Below the pieces are notes generated by a model that was not told the DNA's origin, ran no database searches, and saw nothing but the letters and a program-made list of their open reading frames with translations. Made by a program: the position numbers and the translations under genes. From contig CAVTJJ010000004.1 in assembly GCA_963735035.1 (NCBI GenBank), positions 384,001-448,000 on the forward strand: a stretch of DNA of 64,000 bases, given 5' to 3'. Source of the DNA: an uncultured candidate division Zixibacteria bacterium. Its GTDB lineage: Bacteria > Zixibacteria > MSB-5A5 > GN15 > FEB-12. This document shows, one piece after another, positions 3,154 to 42,766 of this stretch; the first letter of the stretch is position 1; each line of letters starts with the position of its first letter.

Positions 3154-5091
3154 TCAGGGACGGTAGTGAAGAATGTGATTGTAGTCACCCACGACAAAGA
3201 AGTTGGCCGCGCTGAATCCATAGACTCCGCGCAGATTGATACCGATACTGCTATCCAGCGCTGTAACTACTCCGGTGTGCAGACTATATTGATAGGTCGA
3301 TCCCTTTTCGCCGCAGATGGTCAATGTGCCGGCGTCGTCGGTCCAGATCGACGTCAGTGGCGTCCCGCCAAAATCAGTTGAAACCGTACTCCACACGCCG
3401 CCGCTCAGGCGCAGAAGCCGTCCACCGCCCGTGACTGCCCAAAAATCGCCCGAACTGGTTCCGGTAACGCTGGTTATGTCCTCGGTTGTGCCCCTCGCTG
3501 GACTATGCCAGGTGCCGTCGTACCAATACGCTTCGCCCGCATTGCCGACCACACATGCGAGCGTGTCAGCAGAGGTCTTCAATACATAGACATCGTTCAG
3601 AGTCTCACTCGTCAGGCTGGCTTCGGTACTCCAGGCACTGCCGTCCCACTTGAGCATCGTCCCCGCCGCACCGACCGCCCAGGCGACATTGCGCGACAAG
3701 ACCGACACCGCCTTCAGATCGGCCGACACGCCGGATGATACATCGATCCAATTGGCAAGGTTGGCGTCGTCACGTATAACCATCGCGCCGCCATCGCCGA
3801 CCATAAATAGTGCCGTATCAAGAAAACCGCCGACGCCGCGGAAATTCGTCGTAGTGGTCGCGCCGTTGACCGTCATCGATGCCAGGACATCGCCGCCGTT
3901 CGACCGCATGATCCGACCGCCCGAGCCTACTAGGATTGCTTCTTTGTATGAGGATTCGGTTCCGGCCCAAACATCGACGAAATCAGGTTCGTTTCTTACC
4001 CGTACGGGTGTCCATTCGTTACCGTCGTAGTGAACTACTATGTCGCCGGCGGCGTAAATGTCTGTGGGTGATGTTCCCCAGACACTCAGGAAACCGAAAT
4101 TCGTGAGATGTGGTTCGAGTTTCCAGACGGTACTGTCGTAATGAAGAATCTTTCCACCCCAACCTACCGCGTAGATGTTGTTTTCCGCCGTTCCCCAGAT
4201 GCTATAGAGAGCGTTGGATATCCCGGTTTCCATCCTGGTCATGGCTGAATCAGCAGGTTTGTTGGGATTGTATCGTATGATCGTGCCGTTGGTTCCGACC
4301 ATGTATACGGTGTCATTCGAAAGTCCCCAGATATCCCAAAGATCGTATTGGGTTTGGGATCGGACTACTTTCCACCAGGCCGTGTCAGGACTAACAGGAC
4401 GTCTATAGTGCAAGAACGCTCCGACCGAGCCGCACACGAAGATATTGCTGTCCGAGCTGCCCCAGACTCCGTTCAAATGAGCGGGCGTGTTGCCACCAAT
4501 AAGTAAATGCGTCCAGTCCATACCATCGTAATGAACGACCGTACCGTCAAACCCCACCGCATAGATGTTGCTATCGGCGCTGCCCCAGATGTCGTAGAGA
4601 CCCCAATCGATAGTCCCGATATTGGCATCGACGAAATTGATGCCGTTATACTGTTTGATGAACGGCTTGTCGGGCGCCTGTACCGTCACATTGGAATCGA
4701 CCAGGGAGTCAAAGTAGGTAGTGTCCCGGTCGATTATCTGACCTACGAAATAGAGGTTGTCGCCCCGTTCGCCCCAAACTGAATGAATCACCCGGTCAAA
4801 GGCCGGTCCGGAATTGAGCGAATCCCAGGTGGCCCCGTTCTTTCTGTAAACCAGACCTTCTTCACCCATAAGAAAGATTTCACCGGTCGGTGCGCCCCAG
4901 ACCTTTTCCCATGTGGTGGTCGTAGACAGGGCCCCGAGCTGGTGGAACTCCGAGGCGGCGGTAGGAGTGGAATTGGTCGGGGTGTCACTCCCGCAGGATA
5001 TTATCAGGAAGGACGCCAAAATGGCTACGATTGACAGGCTGACAACGGTGCGAAGGACAAATCTTGGCGACTTCACTTGGCTCTTTTCCAT
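3154..5091 (-). CDS. Lipoprotein with beta-propeller repeats (WD40/YVTN/BNR-like)
   Basis: Lipobox IISC; repeated L..VWG.S..NIYAVG..G.I.HYDG..W units. Confidence 0.8.
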   Translation of the reverse strand: MEKSQVKSPRFVLRTVVSLSIVAILASFLIISCGSDTPTNSTPTAASEFHQLGALSTTTTWEKVWGAPTGEIFLMGEEGLVYRKNGATWDSLNSGPAFDRVIHSVWGERGDNLYFVGQIIDRDTTYFDSLVDSNVTVQAPDKPFIKQYNGINFVDANIGTIDWGLYDIWGSADSNIYAVGFDGTVVHYDGMDWTHLLIGGNTPAHLNGVWGSSDSNIFVCGSVGAFLHYRRPVSPDTAWWKVVRSQTQYDLWDIWGLSNDTVYMVGTNGTIIRYNPNKPADSAMTRMETGISNALYSIWGTAENNIYAVGWGGKILHYDSTVWKLEPHLTNFGFLSVWGTSPTDIYAAGDIVVHYDGNEWTPVRVRNEPDFVDVWAGTESSYKEAILVGSGGRIMRSNGGDVLASMTVNGATTTTNFRGVGGFLDTALFMVGDGGAMVIRDDANLANWIDVSSGVSADLKAVSVLSRNVAWAVGAAGTMLKWDGSAWSTEASLTSETLNDVYVLKTSADTLACVVGNAGEAYWYDGTWHSPARGTTEDITSVTGTSSGDFWAVTGGGRLLRLSGGVWSTVSTDFGGTPLTSIWTDDAGTLTICGEKGSTYQYSLHTGVVTALDSSIGINLRGVYGFSAANFFVVGDYNHILHYRP

Positions 5092-7079: not shown

Positions 7080-7433
7080 ATGAATCGATCTGAAGGCGTT
7101 CCAAGAGTTCTTTGGATTTCTCAGATCATTGTAATCTTGATGCTGTTCTGGGCAATCAGGCCAGACAATTCGTACCAATACTACACCTTGCTTCGATGGG
7201 TATGCTTCGCTGTGCTTGGATATACGGCAATGCTGGCATACAGCCGCGGGATGAATGGCTTAGCATGGATACTTGTTATCACCGCACTTGTGTATAATCC
7301 CTTTGCCCCCGTGCATCTTACACGAATCATTTGGACTATCTTGAACATCGCAACTATTGCTGTGGCCATAGTGAGTACATGCTTGCTTCACCGGCCACGA
7401 AGCACAAAATCAGACGGAGGTATTGAGGCGTGA
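7080..7433 (+). CDS. Small membrane protein, DUF6804-like
   Basis: YYTLLRWV...YNPFAPVHLTR..W; four hydrophobic segments. Confidence 0.75.
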   Translation: MNRSEGVPRVLWISQIIVILMLFWAIRPDNSYQYYTLLRWVCFAVLGYTAMLAYSRGMNGLAWILVITALVYNPFAPVHLTRIIWTILNIATIAVAIVSTCLLHRPRSTKSDGGIEA

Positions 7434-10512: not shown

Positions 10513-10803
10513 GCGTCAGGTCACACCTCAACCGACTTCGTCGGCCTCGGCAGGACCCGACGCAACAACACGGTAGATTGGAGCGGTTTAGAAACTGTCT
10601 TGCCCCGCTTCAGGCGGGGCATCCACATAACTGATCGGCAGGGTTCCAACCCTGCCGGATCACGCACGGCAGGCACAACATGCGTCAGGTCACACCTCAA
10701 CCGACTTCGTCGATCTCGGCAGGACCCGACGCAACGAACAAACTTAATCGGCAGGGTTCCAACCCTGCCGGATCGCACGCGGCAGGCACAGAGTCCTGCC
10801 GAT
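10513..10803. repeat. Composite REP cluster
   Basis: Two GTCAGGTCACACCTC...GCAGGACCCGACGCAAC units, two ATCGGCAGGGTTCCAACCCTGCCG units and one GTCTTGCCCCG hairpin. Confidence 0.9.
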
Positions 10804-11680: not shown

Positions 11681-12139
11681 GTGCGCCTTCCAATCCAGGT
11701 AAGCATCTTCATCATTCGGCCGACCCCAGGAAGCGGTCATGAATACTTGATGCTCCACCGCGTGCTCAAGCGACTTTCGTTCTGGCAGCCGGTGACGGGT
11801 GGAGTAGAGTCGGGCGAAACTATCGAACAGGCCGCCCAACGCGAATTGACCGAAGAGACCGGTTTCGCTTCAGACAATTTGATACCTATCGGTTTCAGCT
11901 ATGCTTTCCCGCCCGACGAGTTCTTCAAAGCGATCTATGCCGAACCACCCGATGAAATCGTTGTGCACGTATTTGTCACCCGCATGGCGGTGGGAGCCGA
12001 ACCGAAGATCGATCCAATCGAGCACGATGCTTACCGCTGGTGTTCGTTGGATGAAGCTCTCGAATTGCTCTACTGGTGGGATGATAAAGAGGCGATCAAG
12101 CGGGTAGAGGCGGAGTTGGTATTGGAAAAACGCGGGTAA
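11681..12139 (+). CDS. NUDIX hydrolase (NudB-like)
   Basis: WQPVTGGVESGETIEQAAQRELTEETG Nudix box; EHDAYRW. Confidence 0.9.
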   Translation: MRLPIQVSIFIIRPTPGSGHEYLMLHRVLKRLSFWQPVTGGVESGETIEQAAQRELTEETGFASDNLIPIGFSYAFPPDEFFKAIYAEPPDEIVVHVFVTRMAVGAEPKIDPIEHDAYRWCSLDEALELLYWWDDKEAIKRVEAELVLEKRG

Positions 12140-12300
12140 AAAAAGGCAGGGCGGGACTTCCTGTCCCGCCCCGGACATCCCTGCTGAGAGGTTTGCACGC
12201 GCTCTTCCGTAAGGACGTCAAATTCTCCAGCAGCGGAACTGCTGCATTGTTGCCAGCTCCATTGTCATCCCTGATTCTGTAGTATCCTGACCGCTGCTGT
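12140..12300 (-). ncRNA. Candidate GGA-repeat small RNA (CsrB/RsmY/RsmZ-like)
   Basis: TG-n-TATCAT element at 12303-12311, eight GGA motifs, and a terminal GGGCGGGAC-AGGAA-GTCCCGCCC hairpin followed by a U7 run. Confidence 0.5.
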
Positions 12301-12361
12301 CTATGATATCAACAACTTTTCTGACAAATTGATCCACGAAGGCAATGTTTTTTTCGGGGGC

Positions 12362-12445
12362 AAAAAAAGAACGGGGCCAGAGTGGTCCCGTTCTCGCGAT
12401 GTGGTTGGGCTGAAATGTTCCAGCAAGCCTTAGTCTCTTCGGCTT
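12362..12445 (-). ncRNA. Candidate ~85-nt small RNA, or structured 3' UTR of the TOBE gene
   Basis: Promoter-like TG-n-TATATT / GGAAC-18-GTT upstream; two short hairpins and a terminator with U7. Confidence 0.4.
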
Positions 12446-12544
12446 TCAAATAATATAACACCCAAATGCCGAAAGGGGTTCCAAAAAGTGAGTAATTTGA
12501 TCGGCATTCTCCGATCCACTTGCGCCGGCATAACTGTCTGTCGT

Positions 12545-12754
12545 TCAGTCTTTTACTGGCAGAACATGGATCGCCTTGACAATCAGCCGAACCTCATCGC
12601 CGGCCTTTAGATGCATCTCGGAGACCGACTCTGAAGTAAGAACCGAAGCCATCTCGACCGGCCCGGTCACGTCGAACTTCACGAGCGACATGATATCGCC
12701 GGTCTTGACCGACTTCACCTTCGCCTTAATCTGGTTTCTTGCGCCGTATTTCAT
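12545..12754 (-). CDS. TOBE-domain molybdate/tungstate-binding protein (Mop-like)
   Basis: GARNQIKAKV...SVLTSESVSEMHLKAGD...VKA. Confidence 0.9.
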   Translation of the reverse strand: MKYGARNQIKAKVKSVKTGDIMSLVKFDVTGPVEMASVLTSESVSEMHLKAGDEVRLIVKAIHVLPVKD

Positions 12755-12844
12755 ATTGAACTCTCCTGTATTGGAACATAGTCCGTTGATCTACTGACTC
12801 AAATAACATACCCCCAAAAATAGTCTTCGCCATAAAAAAAGTTC

Positions 12845-12942: not shown

Positions 12943-13092
12943 GTTAACTATGGGTGCCCCGGTTAAGTCGGGGTAAAGACAGAGGGAGTGAAGCGGGGCA
13001 AGACAGAAGGTCGCTGTCATGCTGCGCGACGTCGGGACAAGTACCTTCTTACAATATCTTGTCGAGCACCAGTGCACGGTCTATATTCGCAC

Positions 13093-14774
13093 ATGCAGAC
13101 CGCCCTACACATCGCCGCCCTCGTGAATCAGCTCAAACACGAAATCGTGGGTGGGCGTTTGATCGCCACCCAGTTCTACAAGAAATCGCGTACGGCGCTG
13201 TTCATCGTCCAGAAGGGACACGAGCGGCTGGCGTTGGCGCTCATCTATCATCCCGCCGGGTCGGGTTGCTTCTGCGTACCGGCTTCAAAGATCAGGCTCG
13301 ATACGACCGAGAAACCATGGCCGATCTTCAATCTTGAAGAGGCAGACATCGAGGATGTCACCCAGCCGGAACTGGATCGGATCTTCGAAGTGATCCTGAC
13401 ACGTGATTCCGAAAAGATGCGCCTGGTGTTCGAAGTACTCGGACCCAATGGAAATATTTGGTTGATCGGAGAGGACGGCACCCGGAAGGGAACACTTCGC
13501 AATCGCAAGTATGACAAGGGTGACAAATACAACGCGCCCGTGACCGTTGACCGGATCGATCCATTCGCAATTACTTCGGAATTGCTGGTCGCCCGCATGT
13601 CCGAGCAGGCCGGGCGGTCGCCTCTGGCGGCGCTGAAGGCGGTCCTGGTCGGATTCAATGACACCATGACCCGCGAGGTGCTGACCCGCGCCGACTGCGC
13701 CGTGGTTCACCCCGAAACACTGACCGCTGGTCAGGCCGATGCTCTCGTTCGAGCGGTCGCGAGATTGCCGAACGATTCCGCGCGCCTCAGGCCGGCTATC
13801 TGTACGAACTTCGCGGCGCAGTTGAAGTATATCCGTTTCAGTTGAAAGCGGTGGACAAGCAATCGGAAAAATTCCCGTCATTGTCTCTGGCGGTTATGGA
13901 GATGACATCGCGTCAGCAGACAACTATCACCGACACCGATGATGAGCAACGTCTGCTTAAGGCGGTGGCCTCGGCCATTAAGCGGCAGGAACGACTGGTG
14001 GTCAATATCGAAGCCGATGTAGCCAAGGCCGCCGATTTCGAACGATACAAGCGGCTTGGCGAACTTCTGCAGCTCAATCGGGAACGTCTGAAAAAGGGGA
14101 TGAAGTCGATTGAAGTTGAAGACGTCCTGAGTGAGTCACCCTCTACGATCCGTATCGAACTCAATCCGGCCGTTTCACCCAGCGATAATATCGACGAGTA
14201 TTTCCGTCGCCACCGCAAAGGCCGCGAAGGAGTGGAACTGCTTCGTCGTCGGTTCGAGATCGTCACCGGTGAACTGGAATCACTTCGCGGAATGCAAGCT
14301 GAGCTCGAAAGCAACTTTGAGAATGCGAGCCAGAAATATCAAGCAGAGCTGGCGCCGCTTCTGCCACGTGAACAGGGTAGGCGAGATGTTCAACCGCGAC
14401 TCCCTTATCGAGAGGCGCGGCTATCGAGTGGCCTGACCGTCTACATCGGACGCGATGGCGCTGACAACGATCGGACTACATTCGAGTTCGCCCGTCCGTA
14501 TGAGCTCTGGTTTCATGCCCAGCAATGTGCCGGTTCGCACGTAGTTATGAAGTACCCCAACAAGTCGTTTGAACCGTCCAAACGGGAAATTGAAGAGACG
14601 GCCTCAATAGCCGCCTGGCACAGTAAGGCCCGCAACGACAGCCTGGTTCCGGTAGCCTACGCCGAGCGCCGATACGTACGAAAACCTCGTAACGCCAAGC
14701 CGGGGCTCGTAACAGTGGAGCGGGAAAAATCGGTGATGGTGGTTCCAAAAAAGGAGCTAAGTGCTGATAAGTGA
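13093..14774 (+). pseudogene. rqcH: NFACT family RqcH/Rqc2 (FbpA) gene with one frameshift near 13759 (possibly a sequencing error)
   Basis: N-terminal half has DRIFEV...EVLGPNGNIWL; C-terminal half has YIGRDGADND...WFHAQQCAGSHV...YVRKP; restoring one base gives a continuous protein. Confidence 0.8.
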
Positions 14775-31758: not shown

Positions 31759-32757
31759 TTAACCGGGGCTGGATTCACATTTGAAGTGCAACAGTTCGAG
31801 CCAAAAGAACTCTGCTGGAGTGAGGAAGTCCAGGCATTTTCGAGGCGTGTTATTGTAGATTTGAAAGAAGTCTGCGAACCGTCTCGGCGAGAGTTTGGTC
31901 AAGTCGGTTGACCGAGGGAGTCGGCGTCGGAGGCGACCGATTCCATTTTCGACGCCGCCTTTCTGCCAGGGTGAGTAGGTGTTACAGAAGTAGGTCTCGA
32001 TGTCGTGGTCATGGAGTCGGTAGTGCTGGCCGAACTCGGGACCGTTATCGAAGGTGATGGTCTGTCGCCAGGCGGGCGGCAAGGGTGCCAGGAGAGTGCA
32101 CATGGCCTTAGCAACCGAGGCGGCATCTTTGGCGGGTAGCTTAACCCCCATCATCAGGCGTGAGTGTCGCTCATGAAGGACGAGGACGCTCTGATCGGGT
32201 TTTCGGAAGTTCATGAGATCACCTTCCCAGTGTCCTGGTGTTTTCCGGCTCTTGGCGCTCTTCGGCCGCGCGGAGATAGGGCACCGCAGGGCTATAGACG
32301 ACGTCGACCGACCTCTCTTGCACCCTCGCCAGCTACGTCTGGCTCGGCCACGGATCAGTAAGTACCGCCAAGTGTAATCCTTAGTACGGGCGATCTGCGC
32401 GTAGATAAACCGGTAGATCGTTTCGTAGGAAATCACCTTCCGGCCCATCTCCACGGCCAGCCTTCCCGCGACCAACTCCGGAGACAAACCATTAGCTAGT
32501 CCCATCACTACCATGTCGCGCAGTTCTGGACGGCGATCCAATTTGGAGCCGGTCCAACGCCGGGCACGGCTCTGGTCGTTGGCATAGGCGGGCAGGTAAC
32601 CGCTTTGTCGGCTGCGATTTCGCCTTATCTCCCGAGCAATGGTCGATGGCGCGCGATCCAGAGCTGCCGCGATTTGCCGGAGCGACCGCCCGTTGGTGTG
32701 TAAGCGGGCAATCTCACACCGCTCTTCAAGATTGATCTGTGCATATCTTCGTTCCAT
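31759..32757 (-). CDS. IS30 family DDE transposase
   Basis: HTH SLRQIA..L.R.PSTI.RE..RN; GHWEGD, TFDNGPEF, PWQKGGVEN and NNTPRKCL motifs. Confidence 0.96.
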   Translation of the reverse strand: MERRYAQINLEERCEIARLHTNGRSLRQIAAALDRAPSTIAREIRRNRSRQSGYLPAYANDQSRARRWTGSKLDRRPELRDMVVMGLANGLSPELVAGRLAVEMGRKVISYETIYRFIYAQIARTKDYTWRYLLIRGRARRSWRGCKRGRSTSSIALRCPISARPKSAKSRKTPGHWEGDLMNFRKPDQSVLVLHERHSRLMMGVKLPAKDAASVAKAMCTLLAPLPPAWRQTITFDNGPEFGQHYRLHDHDIETYFCNTYSPWQKGGVENGIGRLRRRLPRSTDLTKLSPRRFADFFQIYNNTPRKCLDFLTPAEFFWLELLHFKCESSPG

Positions 32758-38969: not shown

Positions 38970-41900
38970 TTAGGAACATCCGGACGTGGCGCCACAGGTG
39001 ACGCATTTCAGGCAGGTCCCGTTCCGAACCATCGTAAACTGCCCGCATTCGCCGCACATATCTCCTTCATACCCGCTCATCCGCGCGGTTTGAATTCTCT
39101 CGCGGATACGGTTGACGGGCGCAGTCCCTCCGGCACTTTCTGCCGTGGCGACAAGCTCAAGCACCGCTTGCGGTTTTGGAGATGTTTTTGCAGCCGAAGC
39201 CTCCATCTGCTTACCATCGGTCAATCCTCCATGATTACCGTTACCCCCTCCGCCGTTCCCGCCGTTGCCGCCGTTGCCGGCCTGCGGGTCGAAGCGAAGA
39301 TGGGAGCTGTATAGGTCATCACTGACACGATTGCCACGCGTCAATTGCCCCGTTATCTGGGCCGTGGCTTCTTCTTCATCCTCAAATTCAATAGACTCAT
39401 CCCGCGGTGACCCCATCGTATCGCTGCGCAAATCCTCTTCGTGGATATGCGCCAGATCGTTACGACCAAGGTAGCTGATCGCCAGCTCGCGGAAGATGTA
39501 GTCAATGATCGAAGTCGACATCTTGATGGATTTGTTGCCGCTGACAATCCCGCTCGGCTCGAAACGGCTGAACAGGAAGGCTTCGACAAACTCTTCGAGC
39601 GGTACGCCGTGCTGCAGGCCCAGCGAAATCGCAATCGCGAAGCAGTTCATCAATGAACGGAACGCGGCACCCTCACGATGCATATCGAGGAAGATTTCGC
39701 CGAGGGTGCCGTCAGAATATTCGCCGGTGCGAAGGTATATCTTGTGTCCGGCCACGACCGCTTTTTGAGTATAGCCGGCACGGCGGTATGGCAGGCGACG
39801 GCGCTTGGCAAGGTAGCGATAGACCAGACGCTCGGTCATCTTCTCAGAGACCTGCTGAACCGATATCGTTTCGCCAGGAGCGGACTCGTCGAAGAAGGTC
39901 GTACTGAGCGGCTGGCTGAGCTTGGAGCCGTCGCGGTACAACGCGACCGCTTTGTTCATGCCTTCCCAGGCCATCAGGTAGGCGTTCTTGACATCCTCGA
40001 TGGTTGCCTCGGATGGCATGTTGATCGTTTTCGAAATGGCCCCAGAAATGAACGGCTGCGCGGCGGCCATCATCTGTATGTGCGCTTGATAACTGATGAA
40101 ACGCTGGCCGCGACGGCCACACCGGTTGGCGCAATCGAATATCGGCAGGTGCGTCTCTTTGAGTCCGGGAGCGCCTTCAAGCGTCATCGTGCCACAACAG
40201 TATTCATTGGCGGCCAGGATCTGATCGCAGGTAAACCCGAGTTCCTTCAGGAGGTTGAAGTCCCAGGCGTCCATGGACTCGTTCGAGAAGCCGAGCGTTT
40301 CGTGGAGGAAATCTTCGCCGAGCACATGCTTGTTGAACGCGAACGTAATGTCGAAACAGCTCTCAAGCCCGCGCTCAACCTTCTGCAGCTCCTCGTCGCC
40401 GAATCCCTTCGCCTTAAGCGACTCATGATTGACAAACGGTGCATCCTTGAGCGTCTTCTGCCCGGTGGCATAAGTGACGATCTTGCGGATATCGTCTTCG
40501 CCGTAGTCGAGATGTCGCAGGGCGGCCGGAATGGACTGGTTGATTATCTTGAAATAGCCGCCGCCGGCCAGCTTCTTGAACTTCACCAGTGCGAAATCGG
40601 GTTCGATTCCGGTCGTGTCGCAATCCATGAGCAGGCCAATCGTGCCGGTCGGGGCAATCACGCTCGTCTGAGCGTTGCGGTAACCGTGCACTTCGCCCAT
40701 CTCGAGCGCCTTATCCCACACTTGACGGGCGACCGCGGTGACGTCTTCAGGCAGATAGTTCGGGTTGATCCCGTGAGGCTTGATGGTCAGGCCTTCGTAT
40801 TCGGAACGGTCGGCGTTGAAGGCGGCGCGACGATGGTTGCGAATCACCCGCAGCATGTGGCCCCGGTTGTGGTAGAAGCCGGGGAATGGGCCCAGTTGGC
40901 GGGCCATCTCGGCAGAGGTCACATACGACTCACCAGTCAGGATCGATGAGAGAGCACCGCACCAGGCGTAACCACGCGCGGAATCATACGGGATACCGAG
41001 CTGCATCAGCACGGTGCCAAGGTTGGCGTAGCCCAATCCCAGAGTGCGGAATTCGTAACTCTTGCGAGCGATCTCGCGCGACGGGAACGAAGCCATCAAG
41101 ACCGAAATTTCGAGCACGATCGTCCAGAGACGAATGGCATGACGATATCCTTCGAGATTGAACTGGCCGTTTTCGTCGAGGAACTTGACGAGGTTAATTG
41201 ACGCCAGGTTGCACGCGGTGTCGTCGAGGAACATGTACTCGGAACAGGGATTCGAGGCGTTGATGCGGCCATCCTCGGGGCAGGTGTGCCATTCGTTGAT
41301 GGTCGTATCGAACTGGACACCGGGATCGGCGCACGACCAGGCGGCGAAACAGACCTTTTCCCACAGTTCTGAGGCCGGGATGGAGTCGATGATCTTGCTG
41401 GAGGTTCGGGACTTGAGCGGCCAGTCTTCACGGGCGCGCAAGCGCTCGAAGAACATATTAGGTATGCGGACCGAGTTGTTCGAGTTCTGTCCGGCGACCG
41501 TCAGATAAGCTTCGCTGTCCCAGTTGGTATCGAGATCCACGAAGTCGATTTCGGACACGCCTTGTTTGGCGAGCTCCAGAACCTTCTTTATATAAGCGGC
41601 CGGGACAGCGTACTGCCGGGCCTGTTTCATCGCGATACGAAGCGCGGCGTTCTTGGTCGGATCGGTTTCGATCTTCGGCTCACCGCTGTCGCCGCCTGTG
41701 ACGGTGGACGAGAAGATGTTCTTTAGCTGCTGCTGGATGATCTTCGATCCGGCCACCAGCGCCGCAACTTTCTGTTCCTCGACTACCTTCCAGTTGACGA
41801 ACGCCAGAATATCGGGATGATCCAGATCGAGACAAACCATCTTGGCGGCGCGACGAGTGGTGCCGCCCGACTTGATAGCGCCGGCGGCGCGGTCACCGAT

Positions 41901-42629
41901 GCGCAGGAAAGACATCAACCCGGATGATTTCCCGCCGCCTGACAGTGGTTCGTTGACGCCGCGCAGGTTCGAGAAGTTGCTGCCGGTGCCGGAACCGTAC
42001 TTGAACAGACGGGCCTCGCGCACCCAGAGATCCATTATGCCGCCCTCGTTGACGAGGTCGTCCTGGACCGACTGAATGAAACAGGCATGCGGCTGCGGAC
42101 GTTCGTAGGCGTTCTTGGTCTCGGAGATGATATGCGTTTCGGGATCGACATAGTAGTGACCCTGCGGCTTTCCGGTGATGCCGTAGGTTTCGTAAAGGCC
42201 CGTGTTGAACCATTGCGGCGAATTGGGAGCGGCCACCTGGTCGGCGAGCATGTAGGCCATCTCGTCGTAGAACGTACGGGCGTCGTCCGGCGTATCGAAA
42301 TAGCCATGACGCTCACCCCATTTGCGCCAGCAGTCAGCGAGACGGTGGAACACCTGGCGCGAATCACTCTCGCCGCCGAGTTGTTGCTTGCCGTCTTCAT
42401 CGTAGACCGGATTGCCGTGCTGATCGACCTGCGGTACCCCGGCCTTACGGAAATACTTCTGCGCTAGAATGTCCACGGCCACCGGCGACCAGGTATCAGG
42501 CACCTGAATGTCGTCCTGTTTGAATACGATTGTGCCGTCCGGATTCTTAATCTCCGAAGAGCGACTCACGAAATTGATCCGTGAATACGGAGACTCGCCT
42601 TCGCGCGTGAAATACCGCTGGACTTTCAA
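38970..42629 (-). CDS. nrdJ: Adenosylcobalamin-dependent class II ribonucleotide reductase with TSCPD-like domain and C-terminal Zn ribbon
   Basis: [24 protein letters not shown] and APTGT motifs; CGEC...[16 protein letters not shown] and TTG start. Confidence 0.96.
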
Positions 42630-42766
42630 GAAGTACCTCCTGTACTATGATATATCCGTTCCGACTTGGACGGCTGAAGCCCTGAAACTTCCGTTCGTCC
42701 TCTGTCCCAACCAAAAGGACCTTGGTGCCAAATTCAGGGCGACCTTCATCTCAACCGACCAAGAGG

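Follow-up and report, generated by a model that had tools for sequence, protein, structure and literature searches.

A conserved, structured candidate small RNA with a pair of invariant GGA sites, located downstream of TOBE in genomes of Zixibacteria-like bacteria

Between a TOBE gene and a convergent NUDIX hydrolase gene, the minus strand of the window (the whole stretch of DNA analysed here, 64,000 nt) carries a unit of ~160 nt, E2 (~12300..12138), that we regard as very probably a real, conserved and structured small RNA. Judged by comparison of its sequence with related genomes, the unit belongs to a family that has so far gone undescribed and that occurs downstream of TOBE in Zixibacteria-like genomes, and to our knowledge no small RNA has been described so far in this uncultivated phylum. 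E2 bears on the question of CsrA control in non-flagellated lineages beyond the Gammaproteobacteria, and even without CsrA as its partner it would represent a structured sRNA family that is new, next to a second candidate, the neighbouring unit E1.

Read along the minus strand, the locus consists of TOBE, a spacer of ~60 nt, E1, another spacer of ~60 nt and E2, after which comes the convergent NUDIX gene (Table 1). E2 holds eight GGA motifs (minus-strand starts at 12287, 12270, 12260, 12228, 12208, 12180, 12166 and 12161), and six of these lie in an A(N)GGA context; all are located where a first-pass annotation of this DNA had placed them. The unit ends in a terminator whose stem we count as 11 pairs, nine of them G-C, followed by CC and T7 (12144..12138), with the final Ts overlapping the TAA stop of the NUDIX gene. 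The same annotation had given E2 its own terminator, with an AGGAA loop and a U7 tract facing the NUDIX gene, and two promoter-like elements, TG-n-TATCAT (12311..12303) and a sigma28-like TCAA-15 element (12332..12306); all of these are present, the latter two upstream of E2.

Table 1. Positions of units E1 and E2, their parts, neighbouring genes and associated motifs (window coordinates unless a related locus is named)
Feature	Position	Strand	Remarks
TOBE gene (Mop-like, 69 aa)	12754..12545	-	Pfam TOBE, E = 5.9e-10
E1, second sRNA-like unit	~12485..12362	-	between TOBE and E2; terminator stem 12393..12369 + T7
E1 counterpart in L002	6800-6912	-
ECF-like motif, window	12456-12482	-
ECF-like motif, L002	6886-6912	-
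ECF-like motif, L001	7436-7461	-
ECF-like motif, L003	5079-5104	-
E2 promoter-like element	12332..12303	-	TCAA-N15-GTTGATAT, overlaps TG-a-TATCAT
E2 5' half, variable	12300..12238	-	GGA at 12287, 12270, 12260; L002 keeps none
E2 hairpin, conserved	12235..12179	-	outer helix CUGCUGGAG / CUCU-CAGCAG + inner helix; RNAalifold consensus
E2 linker site CAGGGAUGU, hairpin to terminator	12183..12175	-	matches CANGGANG; identical in L002
E2 terminator hairpin	12173..12147	-	11-bp stem, loop AGGAA at 12162..12158
E2 3'-end U7 tract	12144..12138	-	overlaps NUDIX stop codon
NUDIX hydrolase gene, convergent with E2	11681..12139	+	Pfam NUDIX, E = 1.7e-21

Relatives, conservation and secondary structure

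Related loci were fetched by one NUDIX-protein search of genome contigs, which yielded 80 loci. Three of these are close relatives by NUDIX protein (73, 65 and 64% identity; contigs JAHLKV010000002, JAGGTI010000111 and WJMS01000137), labelled 'bacterium MAG50' (L001), 'Candidatus Zixiibacteriota' (L002) and 'candidate division GN15' (L003), and the other 77 matches reach at most 44% and come from other phyla. By these best syntenic matches, though not by a phylogeny, the window most likely stems from Zixibacteria or a near relative (FCB group). L002 shares the layout of the window (TOBE, E1, E2, convergent NUDIX), and L001 and L003 have TOBE followed by a single shorter unit (~95 nt), another minus-strand gene and a NUDIX gene farther away, such that TOBE is the upstream neighbour of the RNA unit or units in all four genomes.

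Alignment of the window with L002 revealed an E2 core that is 81% identical (78/96), as compared with 44% for the E2 5' half (43/97), 44-46% for the spacers, 70% for TOBE coding DNA (147/210) and 66% for NUDIX coding DNA (295/450); measured by nucleotide identity, the final ~100 nt at the 3' end of E2 are shown to be more constrained than the adjoining protein genes. Over 60 nt of E2 the blastn alignment with L002 reaches 88% (E = 7.6e-12). Translated comparison of the same two loci by tblastx gave similar scores in all six frames, and the constraint therefore acts on the nucleic acid, which bears out the earlier view that the unit has no credible ORF.

E2 also folds with better energy than shuffles, with minimum free energy z-scores of -3.2 for the whole of E2 and of -3.9 and -3.7 for the cores of the window and L002. 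The RNAalifold consensus of these two cores comprises a hairpin, a short linker with GGAUGU and the terminator, and all 27 consensus pairs form in both sequences. Within the conserved hairpin 17 of 17 pairs are kept and invariant, all differences from L002 falling in unpaired columns; its outer and inner helices never vary and therefore give no covariation evidence either way. Covariation is confined to the terminator, where two pairs show compensatory changes and a third switches between G-U and A-U. Changed columns make up 5 of the 54 paired ones (all pair-preserving) against 12 of the 35 unpaired ones (Fisher p = 0.005), a comparison that tests the pairing on the very two sequences from which the structure came, and the shuffle control (115/500) is weak with two sequences.

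A covariance model, R1, built from the E2 cores of the window and L002 with a short calibration that makes its E-values rough, matches the L001 unit at 7431..7341 (21.9 bits, E = 0.0015) and the L003 unit at 5046..4982 (21.7 bits, E = 0.0017), in both cases mainly through linker and terminator. Across the window and the 80 loci (0.8 Mb) the remaining R1 matches have E of at least 0.45, barring reverse-strand echoes of the same terminators, and neither blastn nor R1 revealed a paralogous or further E2 copy in these sequences. The family comprises units from four genomes, in two subtypes of two sequences each.

Rfam models gave nothing at gathering score in the whole window, and at permissive E no Csr/Rsm match appeared in 11900-12800 (E <= 10) or at the units of L001-L003 (E <= 5). 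The first-pass annotation had proposed an undescribed RNA, and these searches agree with it in that E2 fits no known family and draws no Csr/Rsm covariance-model match. Separately, in L003 the rsmX model matches positions 3453-3574 (+), upstream of NUDIX, at 21.5 bits (gathering 56; E = 4.6); we judged this a chance match, as the stretch offers a single GGA plus a terminator.

Conserved GGA sites and the possible CsrA partner

About 30% of bacterial genomes, spread over most phyla, encode CsrA, which is scarce in Bacteroidota, and the supplement of the same study lists two Zixibacteria CsrA proteins of 87 and 83 aa (PMC13443453). The SELEX consensus of CsrA is given as RUACARGGAUGU, in which ACA and GGA never vary and a hairpin loop is the preferred setting of GGA (PMC4347634), and high-affinity sites are described as CANGGANG in apical hexaloops (PMC4894983).

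In four-way alignments of the family the columns that never change belong to GGAU in the linker, to the stem of the terminator and to CA-GGA in its loop. The terminator loop reads AGGAA, AAGGAU, AGGAU and AGGAU across the four units, with a co-varying stem, and the linker reads CGGAUUG at the aligned place in both L001 and L003. In all four units the linker GGAU sits 18-20 nt upstream of the terminator-loop GGA, a distance that fits the 10-63 nt over which CsrA is reported to bridge two sites, with an optimum above 18 (PMC7652899), and the two invariant motifs have the geometry for one CsrA dimer. Individual sites also resemble the published motifs: exact CANGGANG matches are found in the linker of the window (CAGGGAUG, 12183..12176) and in the terminator loop of L002 (CAAGGAUG), the former site agrees with RUACARGGAUGU at 9 of its last 10 positions, and the sequence ACAGGAAGU in the window terminator lacks a single base of the SELEX consensus.

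The two sites are unlike in predicted accessibility, and for the linker it changes from one RNA to another. The terminator-loop GGA is unpaired with a probability of 0.99-1.0 in all four units, and for the linker GGA the values are 0.0-0.09 in the window, 0.60-0.68 in L002, 0.19 in L001 and 0.05 in L003. GGA totals are eight in the window (four to five predicted mostly unpaired), three in ~175 nt of L002 (two accessible), four in L001 and five in L003. Further largely unpaired GGA motifs lie at 12287, 12270 and 12208 in the window, at 7409 in L001 and at 5050, 5045 and 5074 in L003, and within the 5' half of E2 the unpaired probabilities are 0.83 at 12287, 0.89 at 12270 and 0.08 at 12260. The apical loop of the conserved hairpin is ACGGAA in the window and its L002 counterpart has no GGA.

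The first-pass annotation had read E2 as a candidate Csr sponge and had called for a test of GGA conservation in relatives. Conservation holds for the linker GGAU and the terminator-loop GGA, invariant in four of four units, and it fails for most of the rest, since only three of the eight motifs (12228, 12180 and 12161) are shared by the window and L002. With three GGA in ~175 nt there is therefore no enrichment in L002, and a multi-site sponge of the CsrB/RsmZ kind finds no support as a trait conserved in the family. What stands of the sponge claim is a discrete, conserved, structured non-coding unit with a GGA pair that fits CsrA motifs. The E2 of the window species may have added GGA sites.

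A candidate partner is documented for the phylum. Zixibacteria RBG-1, which has a complete genome and is described as non-flagellated (PMC3903129), lists a CsrA homologue (RBG1_1112) and, in its gene table, no FliW or Hfq entry (Supplementary Data 3). That table also holds two FliA-like sigma factors, one of which, RBG1_1108, lies four genes upstream of csrA (PMC3903129, Supplementary Data 3), and small unannotated genes are found between and after RBG1_1108 and RBG1_1112 (PMC3903129). Searches around E2 itself returned no CsrA, FliW, FliA or flagellum-like gene in the 64-kb window (Pfam on 50 ORFs; CsrA regex), no match to the CsrA motif regex in six-frame translations of the window and the 80 loci, and no csrA within +/-6 kb of the three related loci; by eye the regex fits both Zixibacteria CsrA sequences of the PMC13443453 supplement. 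A full-text literature search found no paper linking Zixibacteria with CsrA.

We tentatively propose that the conserved GGA pair of E2 binds a CsrA-family dimer, and hold this as a real possibility that falls somewhat short of even chances. Binding is plausible because the sites, their spacing, their presentation in a loop and the presence in the phylum of CsrA without an annotated FliW all fit, and we hold back because few sites are conserved, the linker is inconsistently accessible and the partner gene was sought within 64 kb only. Mechanistically, one CsrA-family dimer would bridge the two invariant GGA motifs, and the E2 RNA would either capture CsrA as a decoy or titrator or be an sRNA that depends on CsrA; in the window species three or four extra accessible motifs (12287, 12270, 12208) could allow each RNA to take up two or three dimers. 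With two sites per RNA, titration would therefore depend on abundance and not on many sites, as can be compared with the case described in PMC4894983.

A broader scenario, which we consider speculative and unlikely as a whole, is that flagella-less, FliW-less Zixibacteria-like bacteria kept an ancestral module of sigma-28 and CsrA and rewired it, such that a sigma-28-family factor drives an RNA that captures CsrA through the GGA sites of its terminator loop and linker. In the literature cited here, RNA antagonists of CsrA are known only from Gammaproteobacteria and the FliW antagonist is tied to flagella (PMC7652899, PMC4894983), Csr-family sRNAs are widespread in Gammaproteobacteria with fliW anti-correlated with BarA-UvrY (PMC7652899), and many CsrA-bearing bacteria are without the known antagonist sRNAs (PMC4894983). 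If the rewiring were true, the RNA would fill the antagonist role that FliW holds in flagellated bacteria, and the family would be the first of CsrA-antagonist RNAs outside the Proteobacteria, with an origin independent of CsrB/RsmZ.

The strongest competing explanation, though we think it somewhat unlikely, is that E2 is a trans-acting sRNA that works by base pairing or through another protein, with loop and linker serving as a seed or kissing loop for UCC-containing targets and the likeness to CsrA sites incidental. The evidence from conservation, structure and terminator fits this equally well, only two to three GGA motifs are conserved with overall GGA counts within chance, and conservation of the whole 60-nt hairpin goes beyond the needs of a mere GGA scaffold. 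However, the loop varies around an invariant GGA, which fits recognition by a protein better than an extended seed, no target was identified, and the sole pairing tried, that of E1 with E2, was no better than with shuffled E1 (window -44.4 vs a mean of -49.9; L002 -45.7 vs -47.2).

Promoter-like elements, unit E1 and the frequency of the motifs

The sigma-28 (FliA/SigD) consensus is of the TAAA-N15-GCCGATAA/T type at -35/-10. Using the pattern T[AC]AA-N14-16-G[CT][CT]GATA[AT], which was partly fitted to the E2 sequence, the element upstream of E2 is the sole match on both strands of the window, where shuffles give 0.16, and a looser form, TCAA-N14-GTTGAAAG, stands at the orthologous place in L002 (6759..6735). 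The sigma28-like promoter reading of the first-pass annotation thus recurs in L002 and, the pattern having been in part fitted afterwards, counts as a lead and not as a test. By sigma-70 rules the -10 and -35 of E2 are weak. The GacA-box consensus is TGTAAGN6CTTACA, and with up to three mismatches it matched 10 times against 10.8 expected, with none of the matches within 600 nt of E2. Transcription of E2 would probably start near 12300 from the sigma-28-like/extended -10 promoter, the alternative being read-through from E1.

Unit E1 is built of GGAAC-N17-TGTTA (12482..12456), two small hairpins, the stretch CACAUCGC, which is conserved and single-stranded, and a terminator of its own; it has no Rfam match, and its core is 77% identical to L002 (43/56) with terminator stems that are wholly different in sequence. 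An ECF-like motif, G[AG]AAC-N15-18-[CT]GTTA, occurs just downstream of TOBE in four of four genomes and precedes the GGA-type unit in L001 and L003 and E1 in the window and L002; as this pattern was fitted after viewing the sequences, it serves as a lead and not as a test. One lineage may have gained or lost a segment running from the body of E1 through the 5' half of E2.

These arrangements bear on whether E2 is an independent gene at all or arises from the TOBE/E1 transcript, by read-through or from its 3' part, like the sRNAs that lie between dual terminators. The unit is downstream of TOBE in all four genomes, L001 and L003 have no terminator between TOBE and the unit, E2 in the window and L002 sits between two tandem terminators, and its sigma-70-type signals are weak; a precedent exists in E. 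coli rrA/rrB/rrF, which are described as lying between dual terminators and binding CsrA in vitro (PMC8144298). On the other hand, the window and L002 both have the sigma-28-like element upstream of E2, at orthologous positions, and the E1 terminator of the window is strong (7-bp G-C-rich outer stem + T7), so that we regard read-through as improbable, and such an origin would still allow CsrA binding.

Motif frequencies speak to a further explanation, that of a functionless chance cluster of GGA beside an ordinary terminator. With its eight GGA, E2 ranks among the highest 0.59% of all 160-nt windows (both strands; mean 2.47), and at least eight per 160 nt is reached at 13 separate places of the 64 kb including E2 (overlaps merged), most of them in long ORFs. 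The window contains 31 copies of the CANGGANG motif where 39.5 would be expected, and for its two copies inside E2 our own arithmetic expects ~0.7 same-strand pairs within 100 nt anyway. Both GGA density and CANGGANG enrichment lie within chance for the window and were dropped as statistical support. Loop GGA is likewise seen in 23 (~8%) of 280 terminator-like hairpins in 1.6 Mb; when a stem of at least 10 bp is required, six loop-GGA terminators are left in the 1.6 Mb, and four of the six are the four family units.

The 12 other GGA-dense places and the frequency of loop GGA speak for a chance cluster, which nonetheless seems highly improbable to us given the excess of E2 core identity over both spacers and genes, the compensatory changes, and the recovery by R1 of syntenic units in two additional genomes. 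A recent horizontal transfer of the entire segment as the source of the L002 similarity is argued against by the diverged flanks. We take E2 as real because conservation, not motif density, sets it apart. That E2 encodes a small protein is scarcely credible: minus-strand ORFs exist at 12337..12218 (39 aa) and 12221..12096 (41 aa), as does a 14-codon ATG ORF at 12263, but tblastx scores are even across six frames, start codons and frames differ from L002 and indels are not multiples of three, and coding potential was rejected on these grounds.

Several other features of the window were recorded along the way. One of the GGA-dense stretches (at least eight per 160 nt), 42548-42714 (-), spans the start of a class II ribonucleotide reductase ORF (38970-42629) plus ~85 nt upstream, and Rfam places no riboswitch there. 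A G-C-rich 9-bp hairpin with a UGGA loop and no T-run lies at 10749-10770 (-), in the spacer between fumarase and DUF2314 genes. The overlapping ORFs 12988-13845 and 13842-14774 (+) carry consecutive parts of NFACT_N (profile 3-255 and 272-437), the second continuing into NFACT-R, and this RqcH/FbpA-like gene at 12988-14774 looks frameshift-split or affected by an assembly error. An IS30-like transposase ORF (HTH_38 + rve) is at 31759-32757 (-).

Comparison with known small RNAs

Compared with CsrB/CsrC and RsmX/RsmY/RsmZ, E2 is alike in being non-coding, in its intrinsic terminator, and in carrying GGA in hairpin loops and linkers, and its single sites fit the CsrA SELEX and CANGGANG consensus; like CsrB as described in PMC7652899, E2 has an unstructured GGA-bearing stretch directly upstream of its terminator. 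It differs in drawing no match from the CsrB, CsrC, RsmY, PrrB_RsmZ and rsmX covariance models, in the absence of a GacA/UvrY-type upstream box near E2, in its phylum, and in a partner that is putative. The number of sites differs as well, as CsrB is reported to hold 22 GGA (PMC7652899) and Csr/Rsm sponges hold ~5 to 22, largely placed in the loops of hairpins or in single-stranded stretches, against the two to three that are conserved in the E2 family. Such sponges bind several dimers of CsrA and thereby lift the repression of its targets.

E2 is also comparable with titrators of low valency, among them the C. jejuni flaA 5' leader, where two GGA hexaloops offer two high-affinity-type motifs spaced for one dimer (PMC4894983), as in E2. 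Those titrators are mRNA leaders or Hfq-dependent, base-pairing dual-function E. coli sRNAs to which CsrA binds as well, whereas E2 would be a stand-alone RNA, and as far as the cited accounts go they belong to flagellated Proteobacteria and Campylobacterota in which FliW is the main antagonist, whereas the reference genome of the E2 phylum is described as non-flagellated.

Xanthomonas RsmU, E. coli FimR2 and rrA/rrB/rrF, described as sRNAs to which CsrA or RsmA binds, resemble E2 in lying on the 3' side of a gene, with the E2 of the window between tandem terminators; they are derived from mRNAs or lie between dual terminators, whereas E2 has a separate, conserved promoter-like element upstream. 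Set beside the generic features of a stand-alone sRNA gene, E2 is non-coding, ends in an intrinsic terminator, is conserved beyond its flanks and keeps its structure.
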